From assembly GCA_963716425.1 (NCBI GenBank), contig OY970310.1:1539577-1603576 (forward strand): 64,000 nt of DNA. The letters run 5' to 3'. Made by a program: the position numbers and the translations under genes. The notes under the pieces are model-generated. The model did no database searches. It worked only from the letters and a program-made list of their open reading frames with translations, and had not been told where the DNA came from. Of the stretch, positions 3,719-61,661 are shown piece by piece (within the stretch, counting starts at the first letter, position 1; every line of letters begins with the position of its first letter). The stretch comes from Candidatus Babeliales bacterium. GTDB lineage: Bacteria; Babelota; Babeliae; Babelales; JBFXEV01.

Positions 3719-4528
3719 ATGTACAAGAAATTACTTTTAATGCTAATGGCTGCTGGTCAATTAGTGGCGATGGAACCTGCTGACAGTTCTAAATCAGATA
3801 CAACGACCTGTAATTTTAAGTTGAATAAAAATGTAAGAATTATGCTTGCAAACAGGCGAACAATAGCATGGCCAGCAGAATCTCATCAGGTTACCCCATT
3901 CGAGCGGAGCATGGCACAGAAAATTTATGAGGATGGCCAGCAAAGCTTGAATACTCTTTTTGAGCAAGCCACAACTGTGCTTAGAGGCGATAATGTCGAT
4001 GACCAGGTTGCTTTTTTTGATGTGGTAATTAAAAAATTAACTATATCCGAGCATCTCCAGCATCCAATGGGTTATATGGTATCAAGAGGTCGGCTTGAAG
4101 GGGTGCTTCTTAGTTTGGCGTTGTATTGTCAGTTGCAAAACCAGGGCAACGGTACTCAGGGAATTTGGGATAAAGTGCTTGCTACTAAGCAATATATTGA
4201 TGCTCGTTCATTTCAAGATATCTCCCAAAAAGATAAACGTTTAATGTGTTGTATGTATAGGCGACTTAGCTTACATGAGAATTGTCCTAAAAAGGTGGCA
4301 TGTAGAAATTGTATTGGCCATGTGAGCGATCATATTGCAGAAAATGTCGTAGATAGCTGTTGCGCCGATAAAGTAAATTTGGGGCATGCATGCGATAAGT
4401 GTGCAAAAAGGATAAAATGTGATCTCTATGGGAAAGTGAAAAAATTAGTCTATGGCCTATATCATTTCGGAGTAGCTACTCAAAAAGCGGAGCATAAAGC
4501 GTTGATTGAATGGGTGAACGCTAAATAA
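3719..4528 (+). CDS. secreted Cys-rich (CxxC...CC...CxxC) protein, paralogue A
   Basis: Leader MYKKLLLMLMAAGQLVAME. The C-terminal half aligns with the next gene (LALYCQ / CRNC..CC..ACDKC / GLYHF / ALIEW). Confidence 0.65.
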   Translation: MYKKLLLMLMAAGQLVAMEPADSSKSDTTTCNFKLNKNVRIMLANRRTIAWPAESHQVTPFERSMAQKIYEDGQQSLNTLFEQATTVLRGDNVDDQVAFFDVVIKKLTISEHLQHPMGYMVSRGRLEGVLLSLALYCQLQNQGNGTQGIWDKVLATKQYIDARSFQDISQKDKRLMCCMYRRLSLHENCPKKVACRNCIGHVSDHIAENVVDSCCADKVNLGHACDKCAKRIKCDLYGKVKKLVYGLYHFGVATQKAEHKALIEWVNAK

Positions 4529-4721
4529 CGAGTAGGTATAAGAGAAAGATTATCTCGGTTTCAAGAAATATGCTTGGAGAATACAAATTAGAGTAATTAG
4601 TAAATGAGAAGGCCATTAAGAAGAGTCTTTTGTTTGAACGCGATCCTATGATACATTGGAAAGTGTGATAAATTGAAAATGGAGAATTTGGGAAAAACAT
4701 TTTTCTTGGTAGAGAGGGAGT

Positions 4722-5537
4722 ATGAAAAAGATAGGGCTACTATTTGCGTGTCTATCAATCGTTCCGATAAAATCAATGCAAAGATCAAGAAGTTGGTCCG
4801 CAGGACAAGGTGTTGAATCTCCCGTTCTTCGGCAACAGAGTATTGCAAATCCGGCGTATGGCAATGTGCAAGAACAGTTTGAAGATCAGGCAAAAGCACG
4901 AGAAGATCAATGGCGCCAGTGGAAAGTGCAAGCGCCACGCGCACTGCAAGCAGCTCCAGAAGAAACATTATTATTTTTTAAGCGAATAACTGATGATGTA
5001 GTTGAGTGGGGGTCATTACCTTTTGGAGAAACGACTGATTATTCTGCACAGAGGTTGTTTGCTGTAGCATTATTTTGCCAAACAAGAGATATGCTCATAA
5101 CAGCGCATAAAAAAAATGTTTCAGTGTGGAGCTTGTTAGATAACTGCAAGAAGAAGATTGAAGCAATGGATGCCGGATCGCTCACTGGGCAAGATCGTGC
5201 AATTATCTATCAAATATGCAGAGATGGGACAGTCGGTATGCATCACGATGATGAGCCATGCATGGGTAAAGCAACCATATGTAAAGATTGTAAACGGCTG
5301 ATTTCAGTGCTTGTATGCTTATCTACGATTGATCGGTGTTGCAAAGAAACTGCATTTCCTGCTGGTATAGTGAAAGGGTATGAAGGATATGCATGTCCAC
5401 CATGTACTGAGAAATTAAGACATAAGTTGCTGCTTCGTGTAAAAAGTCTTATTATTGGTTTTCACCAGTTTCAATTAGTACCTAAAACACCAGAAGATAT
5501 GGCGCTTGTGAAATGGGCAATTTGTTTTGGAAAATAA
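4722..5537 (+). CDS. secreted Cys-rich (CxxC...CC...CxxC) protein, paralogue B
   Basis: GAGGGA RBS and leader MKKIGLLFACLSIVPIKSMQ. The blocks VALFCQ / CKDC..CC..ACPPC / GFHQF / ALVKW parallel those of 3719..4528. Confidence 0.65.
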   Translation: MKKIGLLFACLSIVPIKSMQRSRSWSAGQGVESPVLRQQSIANPAYGNVQEQFEDQAKAREDQWRQWKVQAPRALQAAPEETLLFFKRITDDVVEWGSLPFGETTDYSAQRLFAVALFCQTRDMLITAHKKNVSVWSLLDNCKKKIEAMDAGSLTGQDRAIIYQICRDGTVGMHHDDEPCMGKATICKDCKRLISVLVCLSTIDRCCKETAFPAGIVKGYEGYACPPCTEKLRHKLLLRVKSLIIGFHQFQLVPKTPEDMALVKWAICFGK

Positions 5538-5543
5538 GTAATA

Positions 5544-5912
5544 CTACATTATGCCAAGTTTTTTACTCAGTTCATCAATTTCAACATTGCATGCGCCCAA
5601 TGCACTTTGTAAATACGTTAATTGTTTTCTTTGGTAGGCAAGTTGTAAATGTTGCAGCAAAGTTGTTCTTGCTGTAGCAAGGGTTTGCCCCTGCGTGCTA
5701 CTGTGGACTAAGCTTTGCAGATGTATGAAGTGAAGATCGCGCGTAGGTTTTTGGCCTTCCAGCTCCTTTCCAAAAAATGCTTCAATTGTTTCATTATGGG
5801 TAGAAACTTGTTGTGCGCAGGCAAGAATACTTTGCCATCCCTCAGGTTCTTGCATGCCATGGATTTGCATTATGGCGGTGAGGATAAGAGTCGGCAAGAT
5901 TGATTTGATCAT
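5544..5912 (-). CDS. small secreted hypothetical protein
   Basis: 122 aa ORF with leader MIKSILPTLILTAIMQIHGMQE; no family recognised. Confidence 0.5.
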   Translation of the reverse strand: MIKSILPTLILTAIMQIHGMQEPEGWQSILACAQQVSTHNETIEAFFGKELEGQKPTRDLHFIHLQSLVHSSTQGQTLATARTTLLQHLQLAYQRKQLTYLQSALGACNVEIDELSKKLGIM

Positions 5913-6069
5913 GGAGAGTCTCCTTTATAATATGCTTTTTTCTTTTACTATGCCAGCTAGAAAGTACATTTGCAACAGCCCCCAAAGAATGCTATAACGG
6001 CTTGTGAAAATATGTCAAATCAGGTATAATTAAGGTATCTCAAATTTGAACCTTTAAAGGATAGAGCCC

Positions 6070-8768
6070 ATGGCCGTGACAAAAGATCAGACAAATAATA
6101 AGCGGGTAGAACCGATACTTATTGAAGATGAATTAAAGAATTCGTTTTTAGACTATGCTATGTCGGTTATTGTAAGTCGTGCACTACCTGACGTACGTGA
6201 CGGTCTTAAGCCAGTGCATCGCCGTATTTTATACTCCATGAACCAATCTGGGTTTCATTATAATAGACCATATCATAAATCTGTGCGCATCGTGGGTGAC
6301 GTACTTGGTAAGTATCATCCACATGGTGATAGTGCCGTTTACAACACTATGGTTGGTATGGTGCAAGAATTTTCAAAACGGTATCCATTACTCGATGGCC
6401 AAGGAAACTGGGGTTCGGTGGACGGTGATAGTCCTGCTGCCATGCGTTATACTGAAGTGCGCATGCAAAAAATTTCTCAAGAAATTTTGGCCGATTTAGA
6501 TAAAGAGACAGTACCATTTGTGCCCAACTTTGATGAATCTACAGTAGAGCCAGTTATTTTGCCAAGCGACTTCCTAACTTGCTTGTTAATGGTACTGCAG
6601 GGATTGCAGTGGGTATGGCAACATCTATCCCTCCGCACAATCTAGGAGAAATTATTGATGCTTGTCTTGCATATCTTGCAAATGAAGATATTTCTGACGA
6701 CGAACTCTTTCAGATAGTGCCTGCTCCTGATTTTCCTACCGGTGGTATTATTTGCGGTCGTGCAGGGATTGTAAAAGCATATAGAACGGGTAGAGGAAAA
6801 TTAGCCTTGCGCGGGGTGGTCGCAGACAGAAGAAACCAAAAAAGGTTCTGCAATCATTATTACTGAACTTCCCTATCAGGTGAATAAGTCAGAACTTATT
6901 ATCAAGATTGCCGATTTAGTCAAAAATAAAGTTATTGAAGGTATTTCTAATATTCGAGATGAGTCTGATCAAAAGGGTATGCGCTTAGTGATTGAACTTA
7001 AGCGAGGAGAAATTCCACAAGTTATCTTAAATCAGTTATATAAATTTACTACATTGCAGCAAAACGTTGCTATCCTGATGCTTGGGCTTCTTGATAATAA
7101 GCCTATTGTTTTCTCGCTGCGTGAACTGATTCGTGAATTTGTATACCATCGCCAAGAAGTAGTTTATAAGCGTACTATATATGATCTTGAAAAAGCAAAG
7201 CAGCGCGAACATATATTGAAGGCTTTATCATTGCGCTTGATAATATTGATGAATTAGTTGCGCTTATTAAAAAATCAGAATCTCCTGAAATAGCTATTAC
7301 AGCAATGCATGCACGGTTTGCATTTAGCACTGAGCAAGCAAAAGCTATTTTGGATATGAGATTGCAACGGCTTACTGGGCTTGAGCAAGATAAGATTCGC
7401 CAAGAATTAGAAGATATTAAGGGACAAATTGCATTCTTAAATTCAATTGTTCAGGATAAAGCAGTGTTAATTGGTGAGGTAATCAAAGAACTTAAAGAAG
7501 TGCGAGGAACTCTATGGCGATGAGCGTAGAACACGTATTGAGGGTCCTATTGATATTCTTACTGAAGCTGATTTAATTCCTGATGAAGACGTGGTGGTCA
7601 CACTTACTCATAAAGGGTACATTAAGCGAGTACCGCTTGCTACCTATGGCGTACAGCATCGTGGTGGTAAAGGTAAGATGGGCAATGACAGCGCTTGATG
7701 AAGGCGATGACATGGTGCTAGATGTATTTGTTGCAAAAACGCATGATATGTTGCTCTTCTTTACTAATTTGGGTCGTGTATATAGCTTACAAGTGTTTGA
7801 AGTGCCTGAAGCTTCTCGTATGGCAAATGGTCGTGCAATCGTAAATCTATTGCCATTGCAAGAAGGTGAGCACGTAGTAAAATTATTGCGTGCACGAGAT
7901 CTTGATGGCAAAAGCTTGGTGATGATTTCCAAAAATGGTGTTATCAAACGAACTGAAGCTTCTCAATTTGCAAATATTCGAGCTACCGGTATTAGAGCGT
8001 GCTACGCTCCGTGAAGATGATATGCTGGTATTCTGCGCATTAAGTTCCGGACATGATACTATTGTTATTGCAACAGCAAAAGGGCAAGGTATTCGCTTTA
8101 AGGAAGACGAAGTACGTATTATGGGTCGCCAAGCGGCTGGTGTACGCGGTATTCGTTTGCGTAAAGGTGATTACGTAGTTGGTATGCAAATAGTTCCTAC
8201 TGATGACGTGCGCGATATCTTGTTTGCAACATCTGGTGGTTATGGAAAACGAGTGCGCCCAGAAGACTTCCGGGTAGCCCATCGTGGTGGTTATGGTGTG
8301 CGCACTATTCCTACTGATGCGCGCAACGGGATGGTGATTGGACTTGCTGCAGTATCAGAACAATCTAATATCTTGCTCATTGATGAAGCCGGTAAAATGA
8401 TTCGATTATCACCTTCAGAAATTCGTACAATGGGTCGCCAAGCAAAAGGTGTTCGCCTTATTAAGTTGGATAAAGATCAACATCTTGCAGCGATGGTTGC
8501 ATTTGAGGAAGAAGCTCCAAATGGATCTGATGAAAATCATAACCAAAATGGTGATGCTGGCCCTCATAAAGTAACTGGTGCGGTTAAAGCCGCTGCTATT
8601 ATTGACGACGAGACGGATATTGAATTAAAAGCAATTGACCAAAAAGATATTCAAGTCGTTTTTGATGATCCAGATTATGAAGATGAATATGGTGACGAAG
8701 AAGACGATGATGAAGAAGAAGAAGTTGAAGATGATGCGGCGGATGACGATGATGCCATGGTCTTTTAA
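6070..8768 (+). pseudogene. gyrA: DNA gyrase subunit A, reading frame broken about six times
   Basis: GyrA motifs are spread over six ORF fragments in three frames ([74 protein letters not shown] and the C-terminal beta-pinwheel repeats). Frame switches lie at about 6564, 6822-6825, 7218, 7506, 7684 and 7997-8001. The C-terminus is a D/E-rich tail. Confidence 0.85.
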
Positions 8769-8843
8769 TATTGAAGGCACCGAACATCCCGAGTGTTCTA
8801 CGTGGCATTAGCTAAGTAGCACATATCGGGGGATAATTTTTGT

Positions 8844-9983: not shown

Positions 9984-10075
9984 ACGTGTCGAGGTTCTGT
10001 GTCTGTCTGCTATGCATTCTTAAAGTGTATGCTACCGCCGGCGCCGTCTCGGTCTATATTTTGTAGGAGTGTTTT

Positions 10076-10861: not shown

Positions 10862-10890
10862 GTTGCAATTCCACAAATAAAGGTAATTCT

Positions 10891-17728: not shown

Positions 17729-18079
17729 TTAGTAGTTGCGAGCGTTTTTTGCGCCATTAGTGAAATCGTGCTGATTTGCTTCTTCTTCAGATGCAAATGT
17801 AGCGCAATTTGGTGGGCAAACCCAGTGGCAACGAACAATCTTTTGTTCTGTGCAAACCTTACGAGGTACGCCACAAACGATTGTCTTACAAACTGGTTTT
17901 TCTTCGCATTCTACCATGTCAGGCAACTTGTTCATTTCACAAGCTACTTCGCATTGTACTGGACATGGTGCTGCTACTCTTGGTTGTTCGTCGCATGAAC
18001 GACGACCACAGTGACGAGCTTCTGCTTCAACTGAAGCGAGGAGTGCAAGTACTGCTACTAGTGATAAAAGCTTTTTCAT
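17729..18079 (-). CDS. small secreted cysteine-rich protein
   Basis: Leader MKKLLSLVAVLALLASVEAEA, then 12 Cys in about 94 residues. Confidence 0.6.
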   Translation of the reverse strand: MKKLLSLVAVLALLASVEAEARHCGRRSCDEQPRVAAPCPVQCEVACEMNKLPDMVECEEKPVCKTIVCGVPRKVCTEQKIVRCHWVCPPNCATFASEEEANQHDFTNGAKNARNY

Positions 18080-18851: not shown

Positions 18852-20363
18852 CTATGCATATGAAAAACCTGCTTTTAGCCAAATAGTTCCCTGCTCGAGA
18901 GCTCTATTTGATATAGCGGAGAATTCTATAGAAGCACCAATACCCACAAATGGCTCTAGCGGATTATCACTCCAGAACTTGCTTGCATGCAAGAAAAGGG
19001 TATAAGAAACTGCAAGCGGATTTGCTGCAGAACGAAGATTGATATCTGCGGGAGTTAAAAATACGGTAAATGGATCATCAAAAAGATTGGCATTTTCGCC
19101 ATTAATACGCGTTGCACTTGCAGTTTGCGGTGTATTGCTGTCTGTGTTCCCTTGTATACCATAGATGCCTAGGGGCACAGCTCCGTCTCTGAGCGATATC
19201 CTTTCTCTTGAGCGTAGCCATGCATCAAGCCCAACGTTAAACTGCCAAGAACCCCAATCATAAGTGCCCATTATGGTGCCTTCCACTTCAGCACTTACTT
19301 TTACATTACAGTCGAGCGTAGTCACGCGGGGACCAAAAAGAATTTCTCCCGAGGCTGTGCCATCAGGGTTAAATCGTTTAAATAATAAGTATCTGCTACC
19401 AATACCATTACCGATAATATCAAAAGTGCGTCTTTGATGAGCACTAAATAAATAATAGTACCGTATATCAAATACCACATTCATGGCAGTATCTGCTTTG
19501 TCAAATACTTCATGAAAGCCATGGATGCCACCACCGAGTCCATTATGCTTGCCATTGCCTACTTGAGCATTAAAGAAGAAATGTGGTTCAATCCGTTTGC
19601 CAACAGGAGCAATATAATTGAGCTGTAGATCAATTTCCCAATCTGGTCTGCAAATAACTTCATAGCCAAGAGTAAGATACAGATCAGCAAGCCCAACTTC
19701 AGTGCGATGACCTTCAACAGTGGCAAATCTCATATCCTCAGTGACAGCAGGAAACACATTCTCATTAATCGTATCACCAACCCATGCGCGTAGTATTGAT
19801 TTCAAAAATGAATCAGCTGGCGCTGGATTTCCTAGTTTATCTGCATCTACGTTAGTACCGGCAGAAATAAACCGTTCACGCATTCTAAGATTCCAGCGGG
19901 ACCAGGTGATAGGAATATACGCTTCAAAATATAATCCTCTTGCGAATCTATTTAAGCTTATACGCGCTTGCATTTCAAGAACCATATTTTGGACAATTGG
20001 TTCAATAATCACGCTGCCTTGAAAATCATCATTGAGTAGAAAGTTCCGTGCAAATACGTCGGTACTTGGATCATTCAAGTTACCAAACATCATAGTATCA
20101 GTACCATTGAAAAATAAATATTGTTCAAGATTCCCATTCGAGAATGATTCAGAATAGGCTGGTGTAATACCAAAATAAAAGCAAGGAAATCCGGTAGTTT
20201 TATCACAGAAGTCATAGGGCTCCATGCCTACCCAATGGCGCGGATTATTAAGTCCTTGTGAGCGCATGGTAAATTGAGAACGCCCCGTAACGGCTTCTAA
20301 GTAGCTATTAAAACAAAAGACAATGCCCAAAATTATGAGTATGTTGGTCCGTTGTGCAAACAT
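18852..20363 (-). CDS. outer-membrane-type protein, family paralogue 1 (most diverged)
   Basis: ATG at 20363 with an AAGGAG RBS and leader MFAQRTNILIILGIVFCFNSYLEA. Shares GIGSRYLLFKRFN, GLADL..TLGY and the C-terminal ..EFSA..NRA...G.IWLKAGFSYA with the other four copies. Confidence 0.7.
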   Translation of the reverse strand: MFAQRTNILIILGIVFCFNSYLEAVTGRSQFTMRSQGLNNPRHWVGMEPYDFCDKTTGFPCFYFGITPAYSESFSNGNLEQYLFFNGTDTMMFGNLNDPSTDVFARNFLLNDDFQGSVIIEPIVQNMVLEMQARISLNRFARGLYFEAYIPITWSRWNLRMRERFISAGTNVDADKLGNPAPADSFLKSILRAWVGDTINENVFPAVTEDMRFATVEGHRTEVGLADLYLTLGYEVICRPDWEIDLQLNYIAPVGKRIEPHFFFNAQVGNGKHNGLGGGIHGFHEVFDKADTAMNVVFDIRYYYLFSAHQRRTFDIIGNGIGSRYLLFKRFNPDGTASGEILFGPRVTTLDCNVKVSAEVEGTIMGTYDWGSWQFNVGLDAWLRSRERISLRDGAVPLGIYGIQGNTDSNTPQTASATRINGENANLFDDPFTVFLTPADINLRSAANPLAVSYTLFLHASKFWSDNPLEPFVGIGASIEFSAISNRALEQGTIWLKAGFSYA

Positions 20364-20391
20364 GAGTACTATCTCTCCTTTAAACTTTTTA

Positions 20392-22107
20392 TTACGAATA
20401 CGCAAATCCTAACTTGCCCCAGATGCCCCATTGATCAAACGCATTGTTGCGTATGCCCGAGAATTCTACTTCACCACCAACTCCCATAAAGAAATCAAAG
20501 TTGCAACCTTCAAAGGTATAGCCAAGATGGGCAAAGAATTTATTGGTCAGAGCAGAAGGCGCTTCTGCAGCCCTTGCATCAAGATCATTGGTAGTAATAA
20601 ACACCGGTACTGCAGGACCAAGTACAGGGCCATCACCTAGAGCTGTACTATTGGTTCCATTAATGGTTACGGTGCTGTTGGTGCGATTTGCTGGAAGATT
20701 AGGATTAATCCCACCCGTTGGCAAGAAATTATCAATTGGTGTGCCGCCTAACAGTCCATACGTGTTTGGCGGAATGTGTCTAATGATTGTGATGCCTTCT
20801 CTGCTGCGGCCCCAAAGGTTATAGCCAATGTCAAGTGTGATATCGCACCATTGATAATCAAATATTAATACAAATTCGCCCATAACTTTAATTTTTACAT
20901 CAGCAGGAAGCGTTGTTACGTTTGGTCCTGGCACCAAAGTATCGGTAAAGTTTCCTGCGGCATTAAATTGTTTGAATAAAAGGTATCTGCTTCCAATGCC
21001 ATTTTTCTTTAAATCGAAAGTACGCACCTGTTTATTTTTGAGCAAACTATACACAACACCATCCGCCCAAAGACTAATCGAATGATCGCCACAGCCACAT
21101 GCGTCCCACAGCATAACGTGAGCCGACATGCCAGCACCAATTCCTACATGGTGTCCATTACCTACTATTGGTTCAAAAACAAATTCACCTTTTGGCGTAT
21201 TACCAGTTGGTGCCGTTACGCGAAATTCGAGCCCTAAATGTCCATTCTCGGTGCAAATATAATTTCTGCCAAGAACAAATTTAACATCTGCAATGCCGTG
21301 CTTTTTTTGCCTGCCGTTAATTTTGGCAAAACGCATAGGATCAATGGTGATGGCTTCCGTAAGATCTCCTGGCGGAGTTTCATTTGTGCTTACGAAATTG
21401 AGAACTCCATCTATTTCTCCCCTCCATGCTGCAATAATAGTATCCACTGGTGCAGGCGCGATAAATGGACTATTTCCTGCGGAAGCTGCATTAATGCTAA
21501 TGTTGCCGGGTTGTTCAGCGTCAAACTCTTCTAAATTCATGTTCCATCGCGTCCATACAACAGGAGCACCCACTTCAAAGTAGAGACCACAATTTACTGT
21601 TTCTAAATTAAGCCGCGCATTAAAATCAAGAATTAAGTTGGTAACTTTGGGTTTCAACTCAACACGTCCGGAAAATGTACTTGGAAGTAAAAAGTTTTCT
21701 GCAAGTACGTCTGTGTTTTCCGGGCTATAGGCAGGGTTAGTTGCCAAACTTCCCCTGAAGCGCATTATATTTGTTTTCGGTGGTCGTACATTTTCTATGG
21801 ATTCACAATCACAAAAATCAATTGGCCTACGGAATGAAAAATAGCGACCAATCGCGTCAGGATTAAACGTTTCCGTCCATTCTGGTGTTATTGAGAAAAC
21901 AAGGCCGTTATCACAATCCCGGCAGGCGTAAAGTTCTTGTAATTCACCCACAAGCCTGCGTGCAAGGTTATCACCTTGTGATCTGGCTGCAAAAAATGGT
22001 TTGCCATAGGTTTCTCTTTTTCCAAAAGGAGTTCTTTCCATTGCCGTTATACTCAATGTGAGAGTGAGCATGGTGCAAAGAAGAAGTTGTTGCATATGTT
22101 TGTTCAT
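20392..22107 (-). CDS. outer-membrane-type protein, family paralogue 2
   Basis: Leader plus YGKPFFAARSQGDNLARRLVGE, ENFLLPSTFSG, FEPIVGNGHH, GIGSRYLLFKQFN and a C-terminal WGIWGKLGFAYS. Confidence 0.75.
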   Translation of the reverse strand: MNKHMQQLLLCTMLTLTLSITAMERTPFGKRETYGKPFFAARSQGDNLARRLVGELQELYACRDCDNGLVFSITPEWTETFNPDAIGRYFSFRRPIDFCDCESIENVRPPKTNIMRFRGSLATNPAYSPENTDVLAENFLLPSTFSGRVELKPKVTNLILDFNARLNLETVNCGLYFEVGAPVVWTRWNMNLEEFDAEQPGNISINAASAGNSPFIAPAPVDTIIAAWRGEIDGVLNFVSTNETPPGDLTEAITIDPMRFAKINGRQKKHGIADVKFVLGRNYICTENGHLGLEFRVTAPTGNTPKGEFVFEPIVGNGHHVGIGAGMSAHVMLWDACGCGDHSISLWADGVVYSLLKNKQVRTFDLKKNGIGSRYLLFKQFNAAGNFTDTLVPGPNVTTLPADVKIKVMGEFVLIFDYQWCDITLDIGYNLWGRSREGITIIRHIPPNTYGLLGGTPIDNFLPTGGINPNLPANRTNSTVTINGTNSTALGDGPVLGPAVPVFITTNDLDARAAEAPSALTNKFFAHLGYTFEGCNFDFFMGVGGEVEFSGIRNNAFDQWGIWGKLGFAYS

Positions 22108-22201
22108 TGAGTTCCTTTATTTATAAACTTTTTTTATTCGCCGTCGCCTTCTCCCGAAAGCTATGGCGCACACGCCGTAGCTCCATAGGAGCAAAGGCGG
22201 A

Positions 22202-23827
22202 TTAAAAGAATGCCAACCCCACTTTGCCCCATATTCCCCACTGGGTGAGCGCATTATTTTCTTTTCCTGAAAATTCCACTTGACCACCAGCTCCAATAAA
22301 TGGTGTGCAATGTTTTCGCGGCCACGCATAACAAACATGTGCAAAGAGCATATGTGATAATGCAGCGGGAGATTCAGCACTTGCCACATCAATATTGTTG
22401 TTTGAGATGAAGCTTGGGCTGGGCGTATCAAATTCTTGGTTAGTAGCAGATATAAAATTTTCTCCGTTGATGAGCACTTGGCTGTTGGTGCGATTTGCAG
22501 CCCCAGGAATAAGATTATCAATTGGCGTGCCGCCCCAAATACCAAAAGTTGCTTGTTCAATTTCTTGGGTCAGTTTAATTTTCTCTTTTTCTCTTCCCCA
22601 TGCACTATACCCAAAATCGATGGTTAATCCTTTACGTTGATAATCGACAAGAAGCACTGCTTGGCCAATAAGACCTATGCCCACTTTTGCATCAAGCGTG
22701 GTTATGTTTGGGCCTGGCACAAAACGATTTGCAAAATTGCCGGCTTCATTAAATTGCTTGAAGAGTAAATATCTGCTACCAACACCATTATTAAGTAAAT
22801 CAAATGTTCTTCTTTGTTTTGTATTGAATGCATAATACAATGCACTATCAAACCAAATACTCCATGAACGGTCGCATCCGTTACTCCAGACTTTGCCGTG
22901 AGCACTCAAGCCACCACCAATTTGAAGATGATGACCACCACCAATAATGGGCTCAAACATATACACTGCTTCTGGACGGTTGCCCGTAGGCACGGTGACT
23001 CGTATATTAAAATCAAGATGATATTTTGGTTTGCATAACACGTTGTACCCCAGCACCAATTCAATATCTGCAACACCAGATTTTGTCTTTTTTCCATCAA
23101 TCAGACCAAATCTCATATTTTCTATGCCAATTGCGATCGGCGCCACACCGGGAGCGGTAAAGGTAAATTCTTGGGTAACATGTGCTCCGGTGAATGCTTC
23201 AGTAATTGTGGTAAAGGGTGCAGTAGTTACATATGGTCCCTTAATAGGATTATTAGAAGCAAGAATTGCAATATCTGTTCCTGCAAAGGCGGGTGTTTCT
23301 TCGTGGAGTGCAACATGTGAACGAGTCCAGGCAATGGGTAGGCCAACTTCTACATAAAGACCAGGTAATCGATTATATAAATTGAGCCGAAAGTTAATGT
23401 CGGTAATAAAGTTTTCTATATGGGGAAATAGAGTGACCGCGCCGGAAAAGGTGCTTGGGAGCAAAAAATTTTCAGCAAGAATATCCGTGTTTGTAGGGCT
23501 AAATGGAGGATTTTGCGCCATGCTCCCCCTAAAAGTCATGGTATTAGATTCGTTATTGAAACCATTATGAATAGAAAAATAATTGCCAAGCCTGTTTCGG
23601 TGGAAATTTTGGCTCCATTCTGGGGTAATTGAGAAGATACCATTTTTATGTTTTGAACCGCAATGGAGCAGTTCATTTACTTCCCCCACGAGCCTACGTG
23701 CTAAATTGTTTCCTTGGCTTCTACTTGCAAAAAATGGTTTGCCAAATGTACATTCAGTGTTTGGAATGTGCGCAAAAAGTGCATGTATTATATAAAATAG
23801 GACATATCTTTTTTTGAGTTGGTTCAT
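22202..23827 (-). CDS. outer-membrane-type protein, family paralogue 3
   Basis: The same conserved blocks; the C-terminus is WGIWGKVGLAFF. Confidence 0.75.
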   Translation of the reverse strand: MNQLKKRYVLFYIIHALFAHIPNTECTFGKPFFASRSQGNNLARRLVGEVNELLHCGSKHKNGIFSITPEWSQNFHRNRLGNYFSIHNGFNNESNTMTFRGSMAQNPPFSPTNTDILAENFLLPSTFSGAVTLFPHIENFITDINFRLNLYNRLPGLYVEVGLPIAWTRSHVALHEETPAFAGTDIAILASNNPIKGPYVTTAPFTTITEAFTGAHVTQEFTFTAPGVAPIAIGIENMRFGLIDGKKTKSGVADIELVLGYNVLCKPKYHLDFNIRVTVPTGNRPEAVYMFEPIIGGGHHLQIGGGLSAHGKVWSNGCDRSWSIWFDSALYYAFNTKQRRTFDLLNNGVGSRYLLFKQFNEAGNFANRFVPGPNITTLDAKVGIGLIGQAVLLVDYQRKGLTIDFGYSAWGREKEKIKLTQEIEQATFGIWGGTPIDNLIPGAANRTNSQVLINGENFISATNQEFDTPSPSFISNNNIDVASAESPAALSHMLFAHVCYAWPRKHCTPFIGAGGQVEFSGKENNALTQWGIWGKVGLAFF

Positions 23828-23952
23828 TTTCTACTGCCTTACCTAATTCAAGATCTTCAAGCTTGCTCTGCTTAGTGTACCGTAAATATTTTTTTTCAAA
23901 AAGGTCCTGAAGAAATTTCTGAGCACGTTTGTAAAACTCTGGCGCGTTTGGA

Positions 23953-25650
23953 TTATGGGAAAGCAAATCCTCCTTTTACCCATATGCCCCATTGGTTGAG
24001 TGCATGATTATTATGGTCCGAGAATTCTACTAGGCCACCAAGTCCAATAAAGGGAGCACCACGACAGCTTTCAAATATATATCCAAGATGCGCAAAAAAT
24101 GTGTTTGAAATAGCAGATGGAGCTTGTGCTGATGTTGCATCAAGATGAGCCGTTGTTATAAATAGTGGCATTGCTGGTGTTCCGCCAGGTCCTCCATCAC
24201 CAAACGGTGAACTGTTTTCACCATTTATTCTTATTGCACTGTTAGTGCGATTTGCGGGCATGTTGGGATCCAATGTACCGTTTGCTAAAAAGTTATCAAT
24301 CGGCGTTCCGCCCAGTAATCCATATGTGTTGGTTGGAATGTTGCCGGAAATTTTGATATGTTCTTTACTGCGTCCCCAGAGATTATAACCTATATCAAAA
24401 GTAACAGGTGCCCATTTAAAGTTAAGTAATAGTACAAACTCCCCCATAACTTTAATTTTCACATGAGCTGGTAGCGTGGTAACATTTGGTCCTGGTACAA
24501 AAGTATTAGTAAAATTACCTGCTGCATCAAATTGTTTAAAGAGTAGATAGCGGCTACCTATTCCATTTTCTTGTATATCAAAAGTTCGTGTGTGTTTTGC
24601 CTTACACAAATGATATATAGTACTATCAATCCATACATTTATTGAACGATCTGCGCATGCGTGATGCCAGAGCTCAGTATGGCATTCTAAACCGGCTCCT
24701 ACTGCCCAATGCCGCCCATTGCCTACAATAGGTTCAAATACAAATTCACCTTTGGGCCTGGTACCAACAGGTGCAGTAATGCGGAAGTTAATTCCCAAAT
24801 GTTTATCTTGAGTACAAATAGCATTGTAACCAAAAACAAATTTGAGATCCGCCACACCACTCTTTGTTTGTGTGCCTTTGATTTTAGCAAAACGCATTGG
24901 TTCAACTGTTATTGGTATTAGAAGAGGATTAGGAACAATCGCTGTATTGGCACTGGTGAAATTGAGAACGCCATAATCGCGTCCCTGGAATGCATCAATT
25001 ATGCTACTCGTTGGTGCTGGAGTAACAAAAGGGTTAATCCGAGGGCTTGATGCATTAATAATGATATTGCCCGGTTGATTGAGAGGTCGAGCTTTTAAAC
25101 GCACATGTGAGCTTGTCCATACTATAGGCATACCAATTTCAACATATAAACCTTTACATGCGTTATCTAAATTTATGCGTGAATTAATATCAAGAATAAA
25201 ATTTTTCAAGTGAGGCTTTATTTTCACAATACCATCAAAGGTGCTTGCAAGTAAGAAATTGTCCGCAAGAACCGTGCGATCTTCGGGAATGCCCATTTGG
25301 CTTCCTTGAAACCGCATGCTATTTTTGTGGTGCTTTATATGAGTAAGTATGAGATTAGGATTCTCAGTGCCCTTGCATCGTTTATGCCGTAAGGAAAAAT
25401 ATCTGCCAAGGCCCTTAGTATCAAACGTTTGATTCCATTCAGGGGTCACCGAGATGACACCATTGACGCATTTAAGACAAGGAACCAGTTCATTCACTTC
25501 GCCCACAAGCCTGCGTGCAAGGTTATCTCCCTGAGAACGCGCAGCAAAAAATGGTTTGCCAAATGCATGCTTTGTATGAGAATGCAACGCGCAAGTAAGA
25601 ATAATAAGAGCAACAATAGGTAAGAATTTTTTAGAAATGGTTTGCAACAT
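23953..25650 (-). CDS. outer-membrane-type protein, family paralogue 4
   Basis: The same conserved blocks; the C-terminus is WGIWVKGGFAFP. Confidence 0.75.
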   Translation of the reverse strand: MLQTISKKFLPIVALIILTCALHSHTKHAFGKPFFAARSQGDNLARRLVGEVNELVPCLKCVNGVISVTPEWNQTFDTKGLGRYFSLRHKRCKGTENPNLILTHIKHHKNSMRFQGSQMGIPEDRTVLADNFLLASTFDGIVKIKPHLKNFILDINSRINLDNACKGLYVEIGMPIVWTSSHVRLKARPLNQPGNIIINASSPRINPFVTPAPTSSIIDAFQGRDYGVLNFTSANTAIVPNPLLIPITVEPMRFAKIKGTQTKSGVADLKFVFGYNAICTQDKHLGINFRITAPVGTRPKGEFVFEPIVGNGRHWAVGAGLECHTELWHHACADRSINVWIDSTIYHLCKAKHTRTFDIQENGIGSRYLLFKQFDAAGNFTNTFVPGPNVTTLPAHVKIKVMGEFVLLLNFKWAPVTFDIGYNLWGRSKEHIKISGNIPTNTYGLLGGTPIDNFLANGTLDPNMPANRTNSAIRINGENSSPFGDGGPGGTPAMPLFITTAHLDATSAQAPSAISNTFFAHLGYIFESCRGAPFIGLGGLVEFSDHNNHALNQWGIWVKGGFAFP

Positions 25651-25826
25651 AGATACCCCTCTTTAAAATAATCAAATTTAGTAGATAGTTTGTTTGTTAA
25701 TCATTGTACCTTAAATATTTTTTTTCAATATGCACCCATTAGTGTGCTATTGCAACAAAAAAAATTCTGTTTATGATCTTAAATAACATACTTAGCATAG
25801 TTTAACACAGCAAAAGGAGTTGTATT

Positions 25827-27809: not shown

Positions 27810-27821
27810 GAATTGTTTATT

Positions 27822-27854
27822 AAAAAAGGCCTGGACAATTTCCAGGCCTTTTTT
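27822..27854. terminator. bidirectional terminator hairpin between convergent genes
   Basis: aaaaaaggcctgga / tccaggcctttttt, with A- and T-runs on both sides. Confidence 0.7.
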
Positions 27855-27879
27855 AATGTACTTATTTTTGTGTTGGATA

Positions 27880-44489: not shown

Positions 44490-46781
44490 ATGAAGAGATT
44501 TTATGTATTGATATGGACACTTCTTTCTGTATCTACCAGTTTTGGTATGATGCAAAATGACTTGAAGGGGGGCTTAGAAGCCCTGGCTGGTAAATTAGGG
44601 GAGCTTGAAAAAGCATTGCAACCTGGTCAGCCTACGCCACAGCCACTACCAGTTGAACCACCATCAGTTGAGCCTACGCCTTCACCGGAACCGGTTGAGC
44701 CAGTTACTCCACTAGCGCCAACACCTCCTCCACCGCCACCACCTCCGTCAGGAACTCCAGTAGCACCACCGCCACCTGTGATAGGAGTGCCAGCAGCGGT
44801 GACGGTAGGCGAAGTAGAGCCACAAGAAGGTGGTCTTGCTGCCTTACTCCAGGCTAAAAAGCTCAAGAAGCAAGGTCCTACTCCGCAAGCTGTTGTACAA
44901 GTGTTGCCTGCATTATCAGCTGCCGAACTTGCAAGTAAAAGCCAAGAAGATAAACAGCGTTCTGATGCAATATTCTTACAAGCTTTACATAATCTCGGTT
45001 CAAGAGAATTTACAAGCTTGAATGATATGCAGGATGCTATAGCAGCGATATTTGGCAATGTGGGCACTAACGAATCATTCCTAAAGCGTCCAGAATTAGA
45101 AGCTTTGCTTGGTGAGAGTGGCCTGCAAAATTCCTTGAAGAAAGATTTTACCCTAGATCCAACTTCAAAAAAGGCCAAATTATTAGAGCTCTTTGAAAAG
45201 TTTAACCAGGAAGGGCACATAGGACTTGTTGGACCAATGGCTCAAATGGTTAATGCTTGCTTATTTGAGACAAAGAAAGAATACAACATCATAGAACAAC
45301 TTGAGTTCATTTGCGTGTCGTATGTAACCGCTCAACGCGGTCTACAGCCATTAAAAGATACAGTTGAGCTTCCAGAGCAAAGACAATCAGATTTGTGTAC
45401 TAAGAAAAAAGTTAAGGAAATAGATACCTGTGTAATCCCAGGTTATATTGAAACATGGAAAACACTAAAGACCGCGAAGGGTATTGATGGTCTTGTGCGT
45501 AAATTGAATTTCTTACGTATGAATCCTGATTTTCTTAAATATCAATATATGCTGTGGACGGGGCCTGAAGGTGATGCTAGTCGTATTATCCAGAAAGACG
45601 TACTAAAGGGGCAGACACCACTATTGGTACTTCTTAAGTCTCCTAATGAGTTTGGTAAGCAATCATATAAGACTGCACAAGGAGTGTTTAAAAAACATTT
45701 GTTTGCCGTAGAGTTGTTTGATAATCAACTTAATATACCGCTTGTAAAAGAGGCTTTTGAGTGGCAAGTAGCAAATACCAAGGTTGTTCCGTTTTTGAGT
45801 TTGAAGGATTTTGCTCTGGGAGAACTTAAAAAGGTAAAAACAATTGCTACTCTTAAGAGTTTTTTTAATAAAGTAATTCAGCAATACCCTGAAGATGTTG
45901 CAGCTATAAAAATGCAACTACAAGAAGCTATAGCTCAGCTTGAGCCGAGCTCACCTGCGATTAATGTTGCTACTATTATAGGTGCTTTACAAGCTGTGGT
46001 AGGCGGTCAGGTTCCAGAAGCAGATAGACTGAATGTTGAAACATTAATTACTGCAGAAATGAAAGATAAAGGCTTGGTATTTGCAGTAAATGAAGCAAAA
46101 AATGAAAAATCTTCTGCAGGTTTTGTGACAAAGCTTCTTGAATTGACAAAAGACTTGCCAGTTGCAACAGCATTAAAAGAAGCATTATCAGGATTATATA
46201 GAACTCCTAATGATATTTATGAGTTACTGGTTTCTCAGCTTACAAATAAGCAAGCACTAAAAGATGTGCGTGATAAAATATTATGGAAAATAAGGCCATA
46301 TGGTTTATTATTACGTGCATTTAAATATTTTGTGGATCAATATAAACAAAATCCAGAAAACAAGCAACTGCTTATAGATAATTGGAAGACACTTACTAAT
46401 ACGATTGCCGTGCTTAATGCGCCATCTCAGTTGGATCAATTAGCAGGGAAACTATATGCTCCTGAGATTTTTAATACTGATCAGTTTACCAAAAAAACAA
46501 GGTCAGATTATTATACCGGGCAATTAAAAATAAGTCGTGAGTCAGAGATTTCTGGCGCTAAACCCAAAAAGGGAATTTATGTTGATGAACATCTAGATCA
46601 GCTCCGTAAAGCAATCGATGAAAAGAATATTGATGCTGTAATAAGCTTCCTCACCGCATTAGTTGCAAAAGGTCAAGGGGTAAGTATTGATAGTGCTGAG
46701 TTTAAACAACTGATGGCTGATGTACGGCAAGCATTACAAGGTACCTATGATAAGGGAGTTAATCCAGAGGATGTTCAATAA
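44490..46781 (+). CDS. secreted protein with a proline-rich tract and a WH2-like motif, then a large helical domain
   Basis: Leader MKRFYVLIWTLLSVSTSFGMMQ. Residues 45-101 are P-rich, including PPPPPPPPSGTPVAPPPP. Residues 113-127 read GGLAALLQAKKLKKQ. Confidence 0.65.
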   Translation: MKRFYVLIWTLLSVSTSFGMMQNDLKGGLEALAGKLGELEKALQPGQPTPQPLPVEPPSVEPTPSPEPVEPVTPLAPTPPPPPPPPSGTPVAPPPPVIGVPAAVTVGEVEPQEGGLAALLQAKKLKKQGPTPQAVVQVLPALSAAELASKSQEDKQRSDAIFLQALHNLGSREFTSLNDMQDAIAAIFGNVGTNESFLKRPELEALLGESGLQNSLKKDFTLDPTSKKAKLLELFEKFNQEGHIGLVGPMAQMVNACLFETKKEYNIIEQLEFICVSYVTAQRGLQPLKDTVELPEQRQSDLCTKKKVKEIDTCVIPGYIETWKTLKTAKGIDGLVRKLNFLRMNPDFLKYQYMLWTGPEGDASRIIQKDVLKGQTPLLVLLKSPNEFGKQSYKTAQGVFKKHLFAVELFDNQLNIPLVKEAFEWQVANTKVVPFLSLKDFALGELKKVKTIATLKSFFNKVIQQYPEDVAAIKMQLQEAIAQLEPSSPAINVATIIGALQAVVGGQVPEADRLNVETLITAEMKDKGLVFAVNEAKNEKSSAGFVTKLLELTKDLPVATALKEALSGLYRTPNDIYELLVSQLTNKQALKDVRDKILWKIRPYGLLLRAFKYFVDQYKQNPENKQLLIDNWKTLTNTIAVLNAPSQLDQLAGKLYAPEIFNTDQFTKKTRSDYYTGQLKISRESEISGAKPKKGIYVDEHLDQLRKAIDEKNIDAVISFLTALVAKGQGVSIDSAEFKQLMADVRQALQGTYDKGVNPEDVQ

Positions 46782-54292: not shown

Positions 54293-54585
54293 GTGGCGAC
54301 TGATTTTCCTCTATAATTTATATCGATATTGTAAAGAAATGTCAATGATTAATGTAAAAAATCTTATAATAAGTGACTCAGATCTTAATCTGATATGCCT
54401 TAATAATAGGCATTTGGGAATGGATGGTATTTAGTCTCATTTTTGAGTGGTGGTGGGGTAGTGAAGGATTTGCATTCGCGTCGTGTAATACACAGGCAAT
54501 TGCTATTTTACTACCGCATTTGTTACAATTAGAATAGAAGAGGTCGGGTTGGATAGCTTGTCAGTTTTTTGCTTGAGGAGTTTTG

Positions 54586-55026: not shown

Positions 55027-55499
55027 TGAGCGTAGTTGTACATTTCTCTTGTTGCACATATGTCGTGTAATAAAATCATTCCTTTTGAATTCTGATGGGG
55101 GGGTGTATGGATTTAGTCTGCTGACTTTGCGCGCGATGCTCCGGTGATGATGGGTGTCAATTCTGAGTGAGAATTCAACTCTGGCAATTTCCGTTGGCTT
55201 TATGGTGTAAAGACTTGGGCATGGTTAAAAACTTTTGTTAGATCTGATTTTTATTCGTGTTTTTTTTACAAAGTGAATTCGGGCACTCCCAACTTTGCCC
55301 GAATTCCAGGCCTTTCGGCTTGGACTGCCACGGCGGGCAGGCCGTCTAGGCTGGCTATGGCTTTTTGCGTTAGCTTAGAACTCCGTCTGCCCCCCTCAGC
55401 TTTTTCATGGAGTTCGAGCTTCGCGTGCTTTACATGGGGGAACAAGATGGAGCTGATGGTGTCTGACTCCGTTAGCACTGTGTGCTTGGAGTGAATTTC

Positions 55500-55900
55500 A
55501 TTCTAAACCTATACATATATATAGGAGATATATATAGGATATATATGGTAAGTAGTAAGAGAATATGTATGTAGGTGCATACGTATATATAGGTACAAAT
55601 AAGAAATATATGAAAACTAGTTCCAATTAAGATAGCGTACAAGATATATAAGAGAAATATATAGATATATATGAATAGATACATCTAAGAATTAGATTAA
55701 TAAGATCTACTCTCCCCATGGAATCTTTATGTATAAGAATAAGAATTAGATTGGTAAGAATAAAAACTAGATAGATAGTATTTAGATAGATATGTGTACA
55801 TGTTGGTGAATAATGCTGTAGTTTAGTAATATATATGTAGTTTACATATATATGTCTTTGATTCAGTATATGTAGTATATGTATATATAAGAAAGCGAAT
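55500..55900 (+). repeat. C-depleted TA-rich low-complexity tract
   Basis: Many ATATATA(G/T)G-type units. By hand count there are about 33 C in about 420 nt on the plus strand. Confidence 0.7.
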
Positions 55901-56298
55901 CAAAATAAGAGCTAATTTCATTAATAGGGGAGAGTCAGATTTATTAATTAAAGTAAGAAGTCTTTGAAAACCAATTGATTAAGCGCATGTAAACATAAAA
56001 ACAAATCGCACGTCCATTTAAAATTAAAAACGACCTTAACCAAAGAACGTTGATTGGCGCTTTCTTTCTGTTGATTTTATTCTCATTTTTTCCCACAACT
56101 TTTCTGTTGATTCAAAAGTATTTGATAAAAGTGTTGAAAAACATTTGTGTTATATTCAAGATGCCTAAACTTCTTAAATCATAAGTTCTTGTATTTCTTA
56201 AAAGGGAAGAAGGGGGCGGCTGGTTTCTGTACCACGGTTTTTTTGCAGCAATCTGAGATAGCGCATTGTCTCTGTGAATATTATTTTTGCCAGTGTCA

Positions 56299-56332
56299 GG
56301 CGCCCTTCGACAGGCTCAGGATGAACGAGCGC
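56299..56332 (-). repeat. GC-rich REP-like dispersed repeat copy
   Basis: ggcgcccttcgacaggctcaggatgaacgagcgc, close to the reverse complement of the 54236-54262 core. Confidence 0.6.
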
Positions 56333-56440
56333 AGACACGTAGACGGAAACAATCTTACTTAGAGCTTCTTCGTTTTAGCCTTTAGTCTTGCCTGCTCCCG
56401 TAACTTTAGCGTCGAAGGATCGTGAACTATCAGGATAAAT

Positions 56441-57394: not shown

Positions 57395-57417
57395 ATATGG
57401 GTCTTGAGGTTTTGTGT

Positions 57418-58743: not shown

Positions 58744-58837
58744 AGTGAACCTTTTGCGACAAAAAATGAGTATATATTATGCAAATATACACTTTTGATC
58801 AAATGATAGCAATATAAAGGGCTTTTTTATGAGATTT

Positions 58838-59974: not shown

Positions 59975-59997
59975 GTAAGATGCCTTTCAATACTTAT

Positions 59998-60834
59998 TTA
60001 CGCGCCATATTTTAGATCTTCCGCCTTCAATCCTACAATAGAATCGATCAGCGCTTGGCGATGTTGTATACTATTGCTGGGATGCACTAATGCTGCAATA
60101 TCAAAACGTTTGCGGCGCATTGCCTCATTAAATGGGGTAACCCGAGCGTTATTTGCCATCATTAATAGGGCGTCCAATTCTTTTAATTCATATGCAAGTT
60201 TTTGCTCTAGAGAGGGTAGAAGATCGCGTTCCTTACAATGGGCTTTAAGAGTTGTTAATAACGCAAGTACTTCAGCGGGACCTTGATGTAGCATTGCTTG
60301 AAGAAGTGGGGTATCTCCAGTATCAAGACTTCGTGCTTTTTTGTTTGCACCTGCTTCTATAAGAGCAGTTATTATGGCTGCTTTTGGAACTTGAGCTCTA
60401 TATGTTGCATGATGTAATGGTGTAGGCCCTGCGATTACGTTTGTGCATTCAGCATTTGGATTGGCGCCATGTTTAAGGAAGAGGTTTGCAACTTCAGCAT
60501 TCCCAACATACGCTGCAATATGGAGCGCTGTTGCGCCGGTATCATCATGTGCGTTTGCATCAGCACCACTTTCAAGCAATTCAGTAAGTACTCCAAGATC
60601 GGGCTGATGAGTATAGGCGGTTAACAATAATTGTTCATCAAGCTCTTTTTGTAAGAGACACTTCCCCTTTGTTTCTTTAAGTTTTTGGTCGAGTGCACAT
60701 TGCTTTGGTGAGAAGGTGAGTCTGTTTGTACTAAAAGTTCTTTTTACTAAAATCCGCATTGCTTGTGCAGTACCAGATTCTGTAAGAAGCAAAATAACTA
60801 ACATGAGGCAGGTATATTGGTTGACGTTCTGCAT
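59998..60834 (-). CDS. secreted ankyrin-repeat protein
   Basis: Leader ...LLLTESGTAQAMR; GATALHIAAYVGNAEVANLFLKHGANPNA, PTPLHHATY and GDTPLLQAML. Confidence 0.8.
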   Translation of the reverse strand: MQNVNQYTCLMLVILLLTESGTAQAMRILVKRTFSTNRLTFSPKQCALDQKLKETKGKCLLQKELDEQLLLTAYTHQPDLGVLTELLESGADANAHDDTGATALHIAAYVGNAEVANLFLKHGANPNAECTNVIAGPTPLHHATYRAQVPKAAIITALIEAGANKKARSLDTGDTPLLQAMLHQGPAEVLALLTTLKAHCKERDLLPSLEQKLAYELKELDALLMMANNARVTPFNEAMRRKRFDIAALVHPSNSIQHRQALIDSIVGLKAEDLKYGA

Positions 60835-60914
60835 GGCAGTCTCCGTTTAAAAGGATAAGATATCTTCTGGTGTTACGGTACCATAGAATTGTGGAGTCGT
60901 AAACAACCTTGCAT

Positions 60915-61661
60915 TTAAATGGCTGACCCAAAAAGCCTGTTTACAAATTGGTCTGTTTTGCCTGCATCAACTAACGTTGCAATGCCATAAAATCCACGAC
61001 GCTCAGCATCTTGTTGCATGGTTACATTATTTTCATCAGGAAGCGAGAGCTCTAGCTTTAATTTCAAAAGTTCGCTTCTTACTCGAAGCGACAATAGTTG
61101 TCTTGAAGTATATTGAGTTGAAATTGTGCTGAGTATGCTTATGCATGCAGCTTTATCACCATGTACTATGGCATATTTTAAGGGTGAATATTCTGGGGTT
61201 ATCCATTTATCAGCACCTTTAAGAATAAGATATTTAATGATAACAGATCGTACACTTTTAGTTTTTTCTCTTTGGGTATCTACTGCACAATGGAGTGGTG
61301 ATAAGCGGTGCGCATTTATTACATTGGGTTGGGCACCACCTTTAACAAGTGCTTTGACTGCCAAGAAGTTTCCAACATCTGCCGCAAAATGTAATGCGGA
61401 ATTACCAAATTGATCGCATGTATTGGGATTGGCACCTTCTGCGATCAGACTTTGTATAATGTCTCCTGCAGACCAATAAGGACAAGTTGCGTTAAAGAGT
61501 AATGCTTGGTTTAACGCTTGTTGTCGCTCAAAGGTATTGAATTTCGGTTGTAAAGCTTGAGATTCGGGGGCATGTCTTTTTAGAGGTCTTTCCATTGCCA
61601 GCAATGCAGCAAAGGGAGAATAGGTTAAACATGCTAAAGCAAAAAGAGTAGTTTTATGCAT
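60915..61661 (-). CDS. secreted ankyrin-repeat protein
   Basis: Leader MHKTTLFALACLTYSPFAALLAME; GNSALHFAADVGNFLAVKALVKGGAQPN and SPLHCAV. Confidence 0.8.
   Translation of the reverse strand: MHKTTLFALACLTYSPFAALLAMERPLKRHAPESQALQPKFNTFERQQALNQALLFNATCPYWSAGDIIQSLIAEGANPNTCDQFGNSALHFAADVGNFLAVKALVKGGAQPNVINAHRLSPLHCAVDTQREKTKSVRSVIIKYLILKGADKWITPEYSPLKYAIVHGDKAACISILSTISTQYTSRQLLSLRVRSELLKLKLELSLPDENNVTMQQDAERRGFYGIATLVDAGKTDQFVNRLFGSAI

Follow-up and report, generated by a model that had tools for sequence, protein, structure and literature searches.

In Bacteroidetes, most substrates of signal peptidase I (SPI) carry Gln at the first position after the cleavage site (+1), and this Gln is cyclised to pyroglutamate, a pattern known as the Q-rule (PMC5837995, PMC10653852). 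Here we describe a preference for Met at the same position in a 64,000-nucleotide stretch of DNA (the window) from a Candidatus Babeliales bacterium (GenBank assembly GCA_963716425.1, contig OY970310.1, positions 1,539,577 to 1,603,576), in which sixteen predicted Sec leaders end in a small residue followed by Met and, in most cases, by an acidic or amide residue. Babeliales belong to the Dependentiae (TM6), protist parasites that form a widespread phylum with almost no cultured members and in which up to 44% of the proteins bear signal peptides. The Q-rule is the closest analogue of this Met rule, both being lineage-restricted preferences for one +1 residue on ordinary Sec/SPI leaders whose value would lie in the new N-terminus, but the Met rule is not a member of it. 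The residue is Met rather than Gln, the lineage is Babeliales/Dependentiae rather than Bacteroidetes, and no modifying enzyme is known for it; moreover, the Q-rule covers most SPI substrates, while the Met rule is limited to putatively host-directed soluble proteins, and Gln at +1 is found in the Babeliales clade only on some envelope proteins. Restriction to Bacteroidetes is thus absent here, and a glutaminyl cyclase, to which the Q-rule is coupled, was neither sought nor required. We know of no lineage-specific +1 rule besides the Q-rule, and the present one would be the second. The Dependentiae literature and the first Q-rule paper that we searched do not mention Met at +1 in Dependentiae; an earlier description elsewhere is possible.

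Two other systems bear a partial likeness. The PEXEL motif (RxL↓xE/Q/D, the arrow marking cleavage here and below) is processed on parasite proteins exported to the host and likewise exposes E, Q or D as the second residue (PMC10900883), but it belongs to a eukaryotic parasite, is cut by plasmepsin V (an endoplasmic reticulum aspartic protease), has another upstream motif and leaves a variable first residue, so that the likeness is conceptual and involves no homology. In type IV pilins and pseudopilins of type II secretion systems (T2SS), with the site G↓F/M-xxx-E, Met can also follow the cleavage site and there is a link to the T2SS, but their hydrophobic segment lies after the site, with Glu at +5, while the core of the leaders described here lies before it.

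A sequence-only reading of the window had listed sixteen leaders with the same junction among about 24 classical ones. Translation reproduced all sixteen start coordinates and junction strings (Table 1), and 24 signal-peptide-like proteins were counted: the sixteen carriers and eight others, namely four outer-membrane protein (OMP) paralogues, a BNR protein, a beta-helix protein, a small Cys-rich protein and a probable lipoprotein. All counts of leaders in this work were made with a purpose-made heuristic, not with SignalP. Each carrier has a basic n-region rich in Lys, Arg and Asn, then a hydrophobic core, then a small residue (Ala in 12, Gly in 2, Ser in 2) and Met. The Met stands at residue 18-27, giving predicted leader lengths of 17-26 aa. 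The claim that the carriers are functionally unrelated also held up, since outside the ankyrin repeats relatedness was found only for the pairs 3719/4722 and 60834/61661 (carriers are named by start coordinate), and the leaders have nothing in common except the 9-nt junction GCAATGGAA. Paralogy or a common leader cassette was ruled out, the leaders showing no likeness beyond these 9 nt. A motif at the nucleotide level was rejected as well: only GCA-ATG-GAA recurs, tracking the amino-acid pattern, and its GGA is present in just 9 of 16.

The frequency of the junction was compared with several backgrounds. Met accounts for 2.3% of the residues in the window's own proteins, where [AGS]M is found at 0.5% of positions, and the binomial probability of at least 16 of 24 leaders having [AGS]M within a 17-residue span is 1.7e-12. 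When [AGST]M[EDQ] was required after the hydrophobic core (the strict motif), the counts were 10/31 window leaders and 1/295 leaders of unrelated bacteria (Fisher p = 1.4e-10), which upholds the earlier statement that the recurrence is not chance. The control set comprised 69 loci of unrelated bacteria retrieved via a conserved HtpX-like protease; the metagenome scan with this protease returned matches mostly from other phyla, and their loci were reused for this purpose. With a crude cleavage-site picker that is blind to position +1, Met was found at +1 in 12/24 leaders of the window and 21/53 of related Babeliales loci, compared with 2/49 of distant Dependentiae and 1/146 of other bacteria. 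Therefore the Met rule is real and lineage-restricted. The same rule was seen in at least 3-4 related genomes (JBFXEV01, CAYZMC01, CAZKLV01 and several Logan assemblies), while distant Dependentiae rarely show it. A search for ankyrin homologues gave one true orthologue, the remaining matches being generic ankyrin proteins from other taxa; as an informal negative control, no Met junction was seen in those of these generic matches that bear signal peptides.

The Met is distributed unevenly between cargo classes. Within the window, it is present in 15/15 non-envelope exported proteins (seven with ankyrin repeats, one short-chain dehydrogenase (SDR) and seven orphan proteins) versus 1/9 envelope proteins (p = 1.2e-5). 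When the relatives are included, which add a protein with leucine-rich repeats (LRR) as well as an ankyrin-DnaJ fusion to the set of carriers, the figures are 37/46 soluble exported versus 4/31 envelope proteins (p = 4.7e-9). Paralogues of the beta-helix protein in a relative (locus L017) also do without Met. For the OMP family, 120 members were inspected; their usual junction has D, E, Q or N after AxA, and a Met junction occurs in 3/20 of the best-scoring members (the window genome and its closest relatives) and in about 1/100 of the more distant ones. Since these OMPs mostly lack Met on AxA↓D/E/Q/N sites, the signal peptidase of the clade does not need it. The Met thus looks like an addition, made on one class of cargo, in front of the acidic or amide residue that usually stands there.

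Table 1 Predicted leaders and junctions of the sixteen carriers, followed by contrast proteins lacking the Met. Positions are those of leader and junction for carriers and of the gene for contrast proteins.
Feature	Positions	Strand	Predicted junction	Relatives and remarks
Cys-rich orphan protein, 269 aa	3719..3775	+	MYKKLLLMLMAAGQLVA↓ME	Orthologue L092 160-1014: LA↓ME, leader start GTG
Cys-rich protein, 271 aa, paralogous to 3719	4722..4781	+	...SIVPIKS↓MQ	Family member P0328: QA↓MD
Orphan protein, 122 aa	5850..5912	-	...IMQIHG↓MQE	JBFXEV counterpart L094 11005-11394 (minus): INA↓ME
OMP paralogue, 571 aa, the only one in the window with Met	22036..22107	-	...LSITA↓ME	
Ankyrin protein, 256 aa	38917..38991	+	...SAVIDA↓ME	Orthologue L014 11791-12555 (minus), 47% identity: VLA↓ME
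SDR, 273 aa	40570..40638	-	...YSSLFA↓ME	Shine-Dalgarno motif AGGAGG at start 40638
Orphan protein, 183 aa	41095..41157	+	...ATEAFA↓ME	Orthologue L018 83-628 (minus): PAFA↓ME
Pro-rich protein, 763 aa	44490..44552	+	...VSTSFG↓MMQ	JBFXEV orthologue: SLG↓MMQ, leader start ATA
Orphan protein, 126 aa	49861..49926	-	...TNSALA↓MR	
Ankyrin protein, 236 aa	51389..51472	+	...VTQLHS↓MD	
Orphan protein, 146 aa	54586..54654	+	...SSSLYA↓MH	
Ankyrin protein, 317 aa	57326..57394	-	...ITSMHA↓MD	Met at -3 too
Protein with weak ankyrin matches, 441 aa	58660..58743	-	...HNNSYA↓MM	
Protein with weak ankyrin matches, 378 aa	59903..59974	-	...PFLLQA↓ME	
Ankyrin protein, 278 aa	60754..60834	-	...SGTAQA↓MR	
Ankyrin protein, 248 aa	61590..61661	-	...FAALLA↓ME	
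Contrast: small Cys-rich protein	17729-18079	-	VEA↓EA	
Contrast: OMP paralogues	18852-20405, 22202-23827, 23953-25650, 27880-29577	-	e.g. TAYA↓QD	
Contrast: BNR protein	25827-27809	+	LYA↓AV	
Contrast: beta-helix surface protein, 720 aa	36497..38659	+	...SSLELCA↓RDE	

To characterize the site itself, 50 junctions from the window and its relatives were collected. By heuristic judgement, all sixteen carriers show the features of a Sec/SPI leader (basic n-region, hydrophobic region of 8-20 residues, polar c-region). A strict -3/-1 site, with a small residue at -1, a small or aliphatic one at -3 and no Pro from -3 to +1, lies directly before the Met in 15/16; the exception, 57394, has Met at -3. 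This agrees with the earlier suggestion that cleavage follows the small residue. Across the 50 junctions, position -1 is occupied by A (31), S (6), G (5), C (5) or T (3), and position -3 by an aliphatic or small residue (L/I/A/M/V/S/T/C). The residue after Met is E in 20, D in 13, Q in 4 and N in 2, with ten having other residues, and L/F/Y/W/I follows in only one (Trp). The consensus is therefore [L/I/A/V]-x-[A/S/G/C]↓Met-[Glu/Asp/Gln/Asn], and 39/50 junctions (78%; 11/16 in the window) fall in the sequence class of the N-terminal acetyltransferase NatB (Met-Glu/Asp/Gln/Asn). In basic n-region, hydrophobic core, -3 and -1 residues and length, the carriers resemble canonical Sec/SPI leaders, but they differ at +1: Met stands there in about 1% or less of the control sets (1/146; 2/49) versus 40-50% in this clade with the same crude picker, and in 80% of the manually curated non-envelope exported proteins here. 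Judged from these features, the carriers are best explained as ordinary Sec-type signal peptides under an unusual lineage- and class-specific rule, and SPI would cleave immediately before the Met.

Other leader types were considered and rejected. No carrier has the Cys at +1 expected of a lipoprotein (signal peptidase II) signal, and in the five junctions of relatives with Cys at -1, the residue before this Cys is L, F, H or E, which does not make a lipobox (L-[AS]-[GA]-C). The RR motif of Tat signals occurs in 0/16 leaders. A class III (prepilin) signal does not apply either, as the hydrophobic core precedes the junction and the sequence after it is polar. As a separate observation, Met is over-represented at -3 too (7/50 junctions versus a background of about 2%), in the recurring form M-x-[A/S]-M-[E/D/Q]; examples are SMHA↓MD, SMQA↓MD, QMRA↓ME and NMNA↓MQ, from window carrier 57394 and relatives L092, L093, L094 and P0021.

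The sequence-only reading had asked whether related genomes conserve the Met. In the family of 3719 and 4722, which has eight leader-bearing members at no more than 50% identity, the junction Met is the sole invariant column among the first 120 aligned columns. The small-Met-acid pattern was likewise kept in orthologues of 38917, 41095, 44490, 5912, 3719 and 4722, with flanks that are unrecognisable. At the level of these alignments, the Met is evidently under purifying selection. It has also been gained and lost. In the OMP orthogroup of 22107, P0206 and P0212 have A↓ME (IIA↓ME in P0212, the orthologue of 22107), and because the other members have A↓N or A↓D, the Met of 22107 is derived; a Met junction is also present in a second OMP orthogroup (P0210, L091). 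Of about 20 SDR orthologues with a leader, nine show the form [T/S/A/G]-Met-[E/D/K]; in the others the site is of another kind, for example NTA↓Q or YA↓Q.

As to purpose, we infer that the Met-acidic start benefits soluble host-interaction proteins of this one Babeliales clade in the cytosol of the host, and we put the probability of this reading, including cleavage of their Sec leaders before the Met, at roughly 50%. Under the proposed mechanism, SPI would cut ahead of the Met and leave a mature protein starting with Met-Glu or Met-Asp, which would then exit the bacterial cell and act in the host cytosol. There the Met would mask the Asp, Glu, Gln or Asn that the clade has by default at +1, all of them Arg/N-degron residues, and would present a native-looking N-terminus of the NatB class free of a degron; placed before an acidic residue, it would also keep an acidic start that is friendly to export. 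We hypothesise that the benefit comes through host handling of the N-terminus. In the cytosol of eukaryotes, an Asp, Glu, Asn or Gln at the N-terminus destabilises a protein through the Arg/N-degron pathway, whereas Met followed by a non-hydrophobic residue is not (PMC6063864), and the N-terminal residue sets how potent anthrax lethal factor is in the host cytosol (PMC2518864).

A host destination is plausible because the carriers include ankyrin proteins, an LRR protein, an ankyrin-DnaJ fusion and an NAD(P)-dependent SDR; Sec leaders on the SDR and the J-domain protein would make sense only with a cytosolic destination. By analogy with relatives, the carriers may thus act in the host cytosol. 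In Babela, 79/126 ankyrin proteins have signal peptides and no secretion system other than the T2SS was detected (PMC4378268); the core genes of TM6 include T2SS components (PMC4776705); and in Chromulinavorax, 78% of the ankyrin proteins have signal peptides (PMC6561590). For the ankyrin proteins of these relatives, a site of action in the host cytoplasm is expected (PMC4378268, PMC4776705, PMC6561590).

Several points weigh against this reading. The split into envelope and non-envelope proteins was drawn after the data had been seen and not blind; the Met is present in 4/31 envelope proteins and has been lost from about half of the SDR orthologues that have a leader. The predicted cleavage position comes from the heuristic calls and not from SignalP, and that the proteins reach the host cytosol is an assumption drawn from what is published on relatives. 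An Ala, Ser, Gly, Thr or Val at +1 would likewise escape the Arg/N-degron pathway, and therefore this pathway alone cannot account for an invariant Met or for its preference over Ala or Ser. NatB normally acts co-translationally on host ribosomes, while the carriers would arrive ready-made. Nor need the second residue be specific, since the envelope proteins of the clade already favour D/E/Q/N at +1 and an acidic or amide residue at +2 may perhaps be a general preference. Imitation of NatB substrates is nonetheless consistent with 39/50 of the predicted new N-termini.

The more specific proposal that Met-(Glu/Asp/Gln/Asn) is a functional address or disguise on effectors exported via Sec and the T2SS is tentative, and we hold it at clearly less than even odds. 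As an address, it would possibly be the first linear N-terminal sorting signal for crossing of the outer membrane by a type II-like system; as a disguise, it would possibly imitate eukaryotic N-termini, being of the NatB class and free of an N-degron, and so control effector lifetime in the host. If either form is true, the effector repertoires of Dependentiae could be predicted from sequence, the separation of host-directed cargo from envelope proteins serving as a genome-wide effector predictor. The rule would indicate that selection acts on the residue with which secreted proteins begin, and it would allow a test of whether eukaryotic N-terminal quality control shapes the effectors that bacteria export via Sec.

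The new N-terminus could instead be read inside the bacterium, the Met-(acidic) start sending its cargo across the outer membrane through the T2SS or vesicles and so apart from the envelope proteins. The class bias fits such a sorting signal equally, as does the lack of Met on envelope proteins that take the same Sec/SPI route, and a sorting signal would explain why Met is invariant though Ala or Ser would do for stability alone. To our knowledge, however, no T2SS has a known linear N-terminal signal, its substrates being recognised folded. The lipoprotein export signal of Bacteroidetes is a precedent for sorting information at the start of the mature protein. Some OMPs carry the Met, about one-fifth of the soluble exported proteins lack it, and no candidate receptor was found. 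PEXEL is another precedent, exposing x-E/Q/D as a requirement for export into the host (PMC10900883). On balance we regard a sorting signal as doubtful.

Somewhat less probable still is that the junction ATG is an active second start, which would yield a leaderless cytoplasmic isoform identical to the processed protein, with start-codon selection keeping the Met. The sequence-only reading had raised this possibility and had noted no Shine-Dalgarno (SD) motif before the internal ATGs of 38917 and 41095. That observation holds and extends to every carrier: counting matches of at least 4 nt, an SD match precedes 12/16 first ATGs and 0/16 junction ATGs. The predicted mRNA folding energy at the first ATGs (-3.6 kcal/mol) is well above that of gene bodies (-7.2 kcal/mol, p = 9e-5), so that the true starts are open, whereas at the junction ATGs (-8.1 versus -7.2 kcal/mol, p = 0.40) the mRNA is not relaxed and is as folded as the gene body. 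The leaders are translated, which disposes of the worry that they might be untranslated upstream sequence, and internal initiation at the Met is disfavoured. In favour of a second start, Met is the one residue that the standard start codon encodes, and it is invariant in the 3719/4722 family. Two relatives also have weak leader starts (GTG in L092; ATA, seen in two assemblies, in the orthologue of 44490 from JBFXEV), and gene callers then pick the junction ATG. But the ATG falls exactly on the -3/-1 cleavage site, which a start codon alone would not need, and a cytoplasmic isoform of ankyrin or LRR proteins has no evident bacterial use. An internal promoter giving a leaderless mRNA was also rejected, as by inspection codons -4 and -3 are unlike a -10 box.

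The ATA start belongs to a 781-aa orthologue of the window gene at 44490-46781 (L014 and L015, about 4416-4480, minus strand) and lies 5 nt after a perfect AAGGAG; the remaining leader and the SLG↓MMQ junction are intact. It is identical in an NCBI metagenome-assembled genome (MAG) and in an independent Logan assembly. This ATA may be a non-canonical start, or the leader may be under loss with translation falling back on the junction Met.

It is also unlikely, and by our estimate a little more so, that the Met is a relic of an ancestral start codon, left functionless when leaderless cytosolic genes (ankyrin, SDR and others) gained a leader by 5' extension. Such recruitment fits the class bias, cytosol-type proteins having the Met and the anciently exported OMPs mostly not, and the leaderless SDR homologues of other phyla are indeed about 30 aa shorter, starting with MKKAIVIG. 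The junction Met, however, does not coincide with that start but lies 5-16 residues upstream of it, with variable spacing. The Met moreover arose within an OMP orthogroup whose members must have had a leader throughout (P0206, P0212), and is found in the second one too. A neutral relic should decay, yet this Met is the only invariant N-terminal column in the 3719/4722 family, at no more than 50% identity. Glu or Asp at +2 is untypical of the native N-termini of this genome (3/23 listed), and no remnant SD was seen in codons -4 to -2.

Chance, common leader ancestry or mis-annotated starts, with the leaders being untranslated upstream sequence, could draw on the heuristic calling of signal peptides and on frameshifts elsewhere in the assembly (LepA, GyrA), but have next to no probability given p values of about 1e-12 and 1.4e-10 and leaders that are alike over 9 nt only, that come with SD motifs, open mRNA and basic n-regions, and whose conservation extends to independent genomes.

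Beyond the leaders, some features of the source and of the window were recorded. DNA of the organism is present in soil and peat metagenomes; no RNA runs holding it were found, only soil and peat DNA metagenomes being matched, and viral contigs, scanned twice for Dependentiae binned there in error, yielded none. In three look-ups, the neighbourhoods of OMP homologues were syntenic housekeeping regions with few effector-type genes. A 1.4-kb stretch between two carrier genes (55027-56440) is without a convincing open reading frame, its sole frame being a low-complexity one rich in Tyr, Ile and Phe (55472-55684), and it gave no tRNA match and no Rfam match. The genes lepA (1738-3563, minus strand) and gyrA (6070-8672, plus strand) are broken, the former by two frameshifts and the latter by two frameshifts and in-frame stops at about 6645-6880, while both are intact in the relative JBFXEV (L094; 607 and 898 aa). 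The damage probably reflects indel errors of long-read assembly rather than real pseudogenes, and none of the sixteen leaders is touched by these frameshifts.

The OMPs of the window form an array of five paralogues (18852-29577; about 500-570 aa, 35-58% identity), which is interrupted by the BNR-repeat protein. They have no Pfam match and share the conserved N-terminal motif FGKPFFxxRSQGxNLARRLVG. The family has 227 homologues at E <= 1e-30; its relatives were found only in MAGs labelled Candidatus Babeliales or Dependentiae, which places the window in an uncultured member of that phylum, and it appears to be specific to Dependentiae. Adjoining the array is the small secreted Cys-rich protein (MKKLLSLVAVLALLAS..., with repeated C-x-x-x-C/P motifs), which is kept in every related genome examined, distant Dependentiae included (L005 13529-13879, L089 12470-12829 and L090 12159-12503, besides the window copy), and may belong to the envelope as a protein cross-linked through cysteines. 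The beta-helix gene is expanded to a tandem array in the close relative CAYZMC (L017 1286-11244), each beta-helix gene there (about 740-760 aa) having as its partner a small secreted protein of 89-92 aa.

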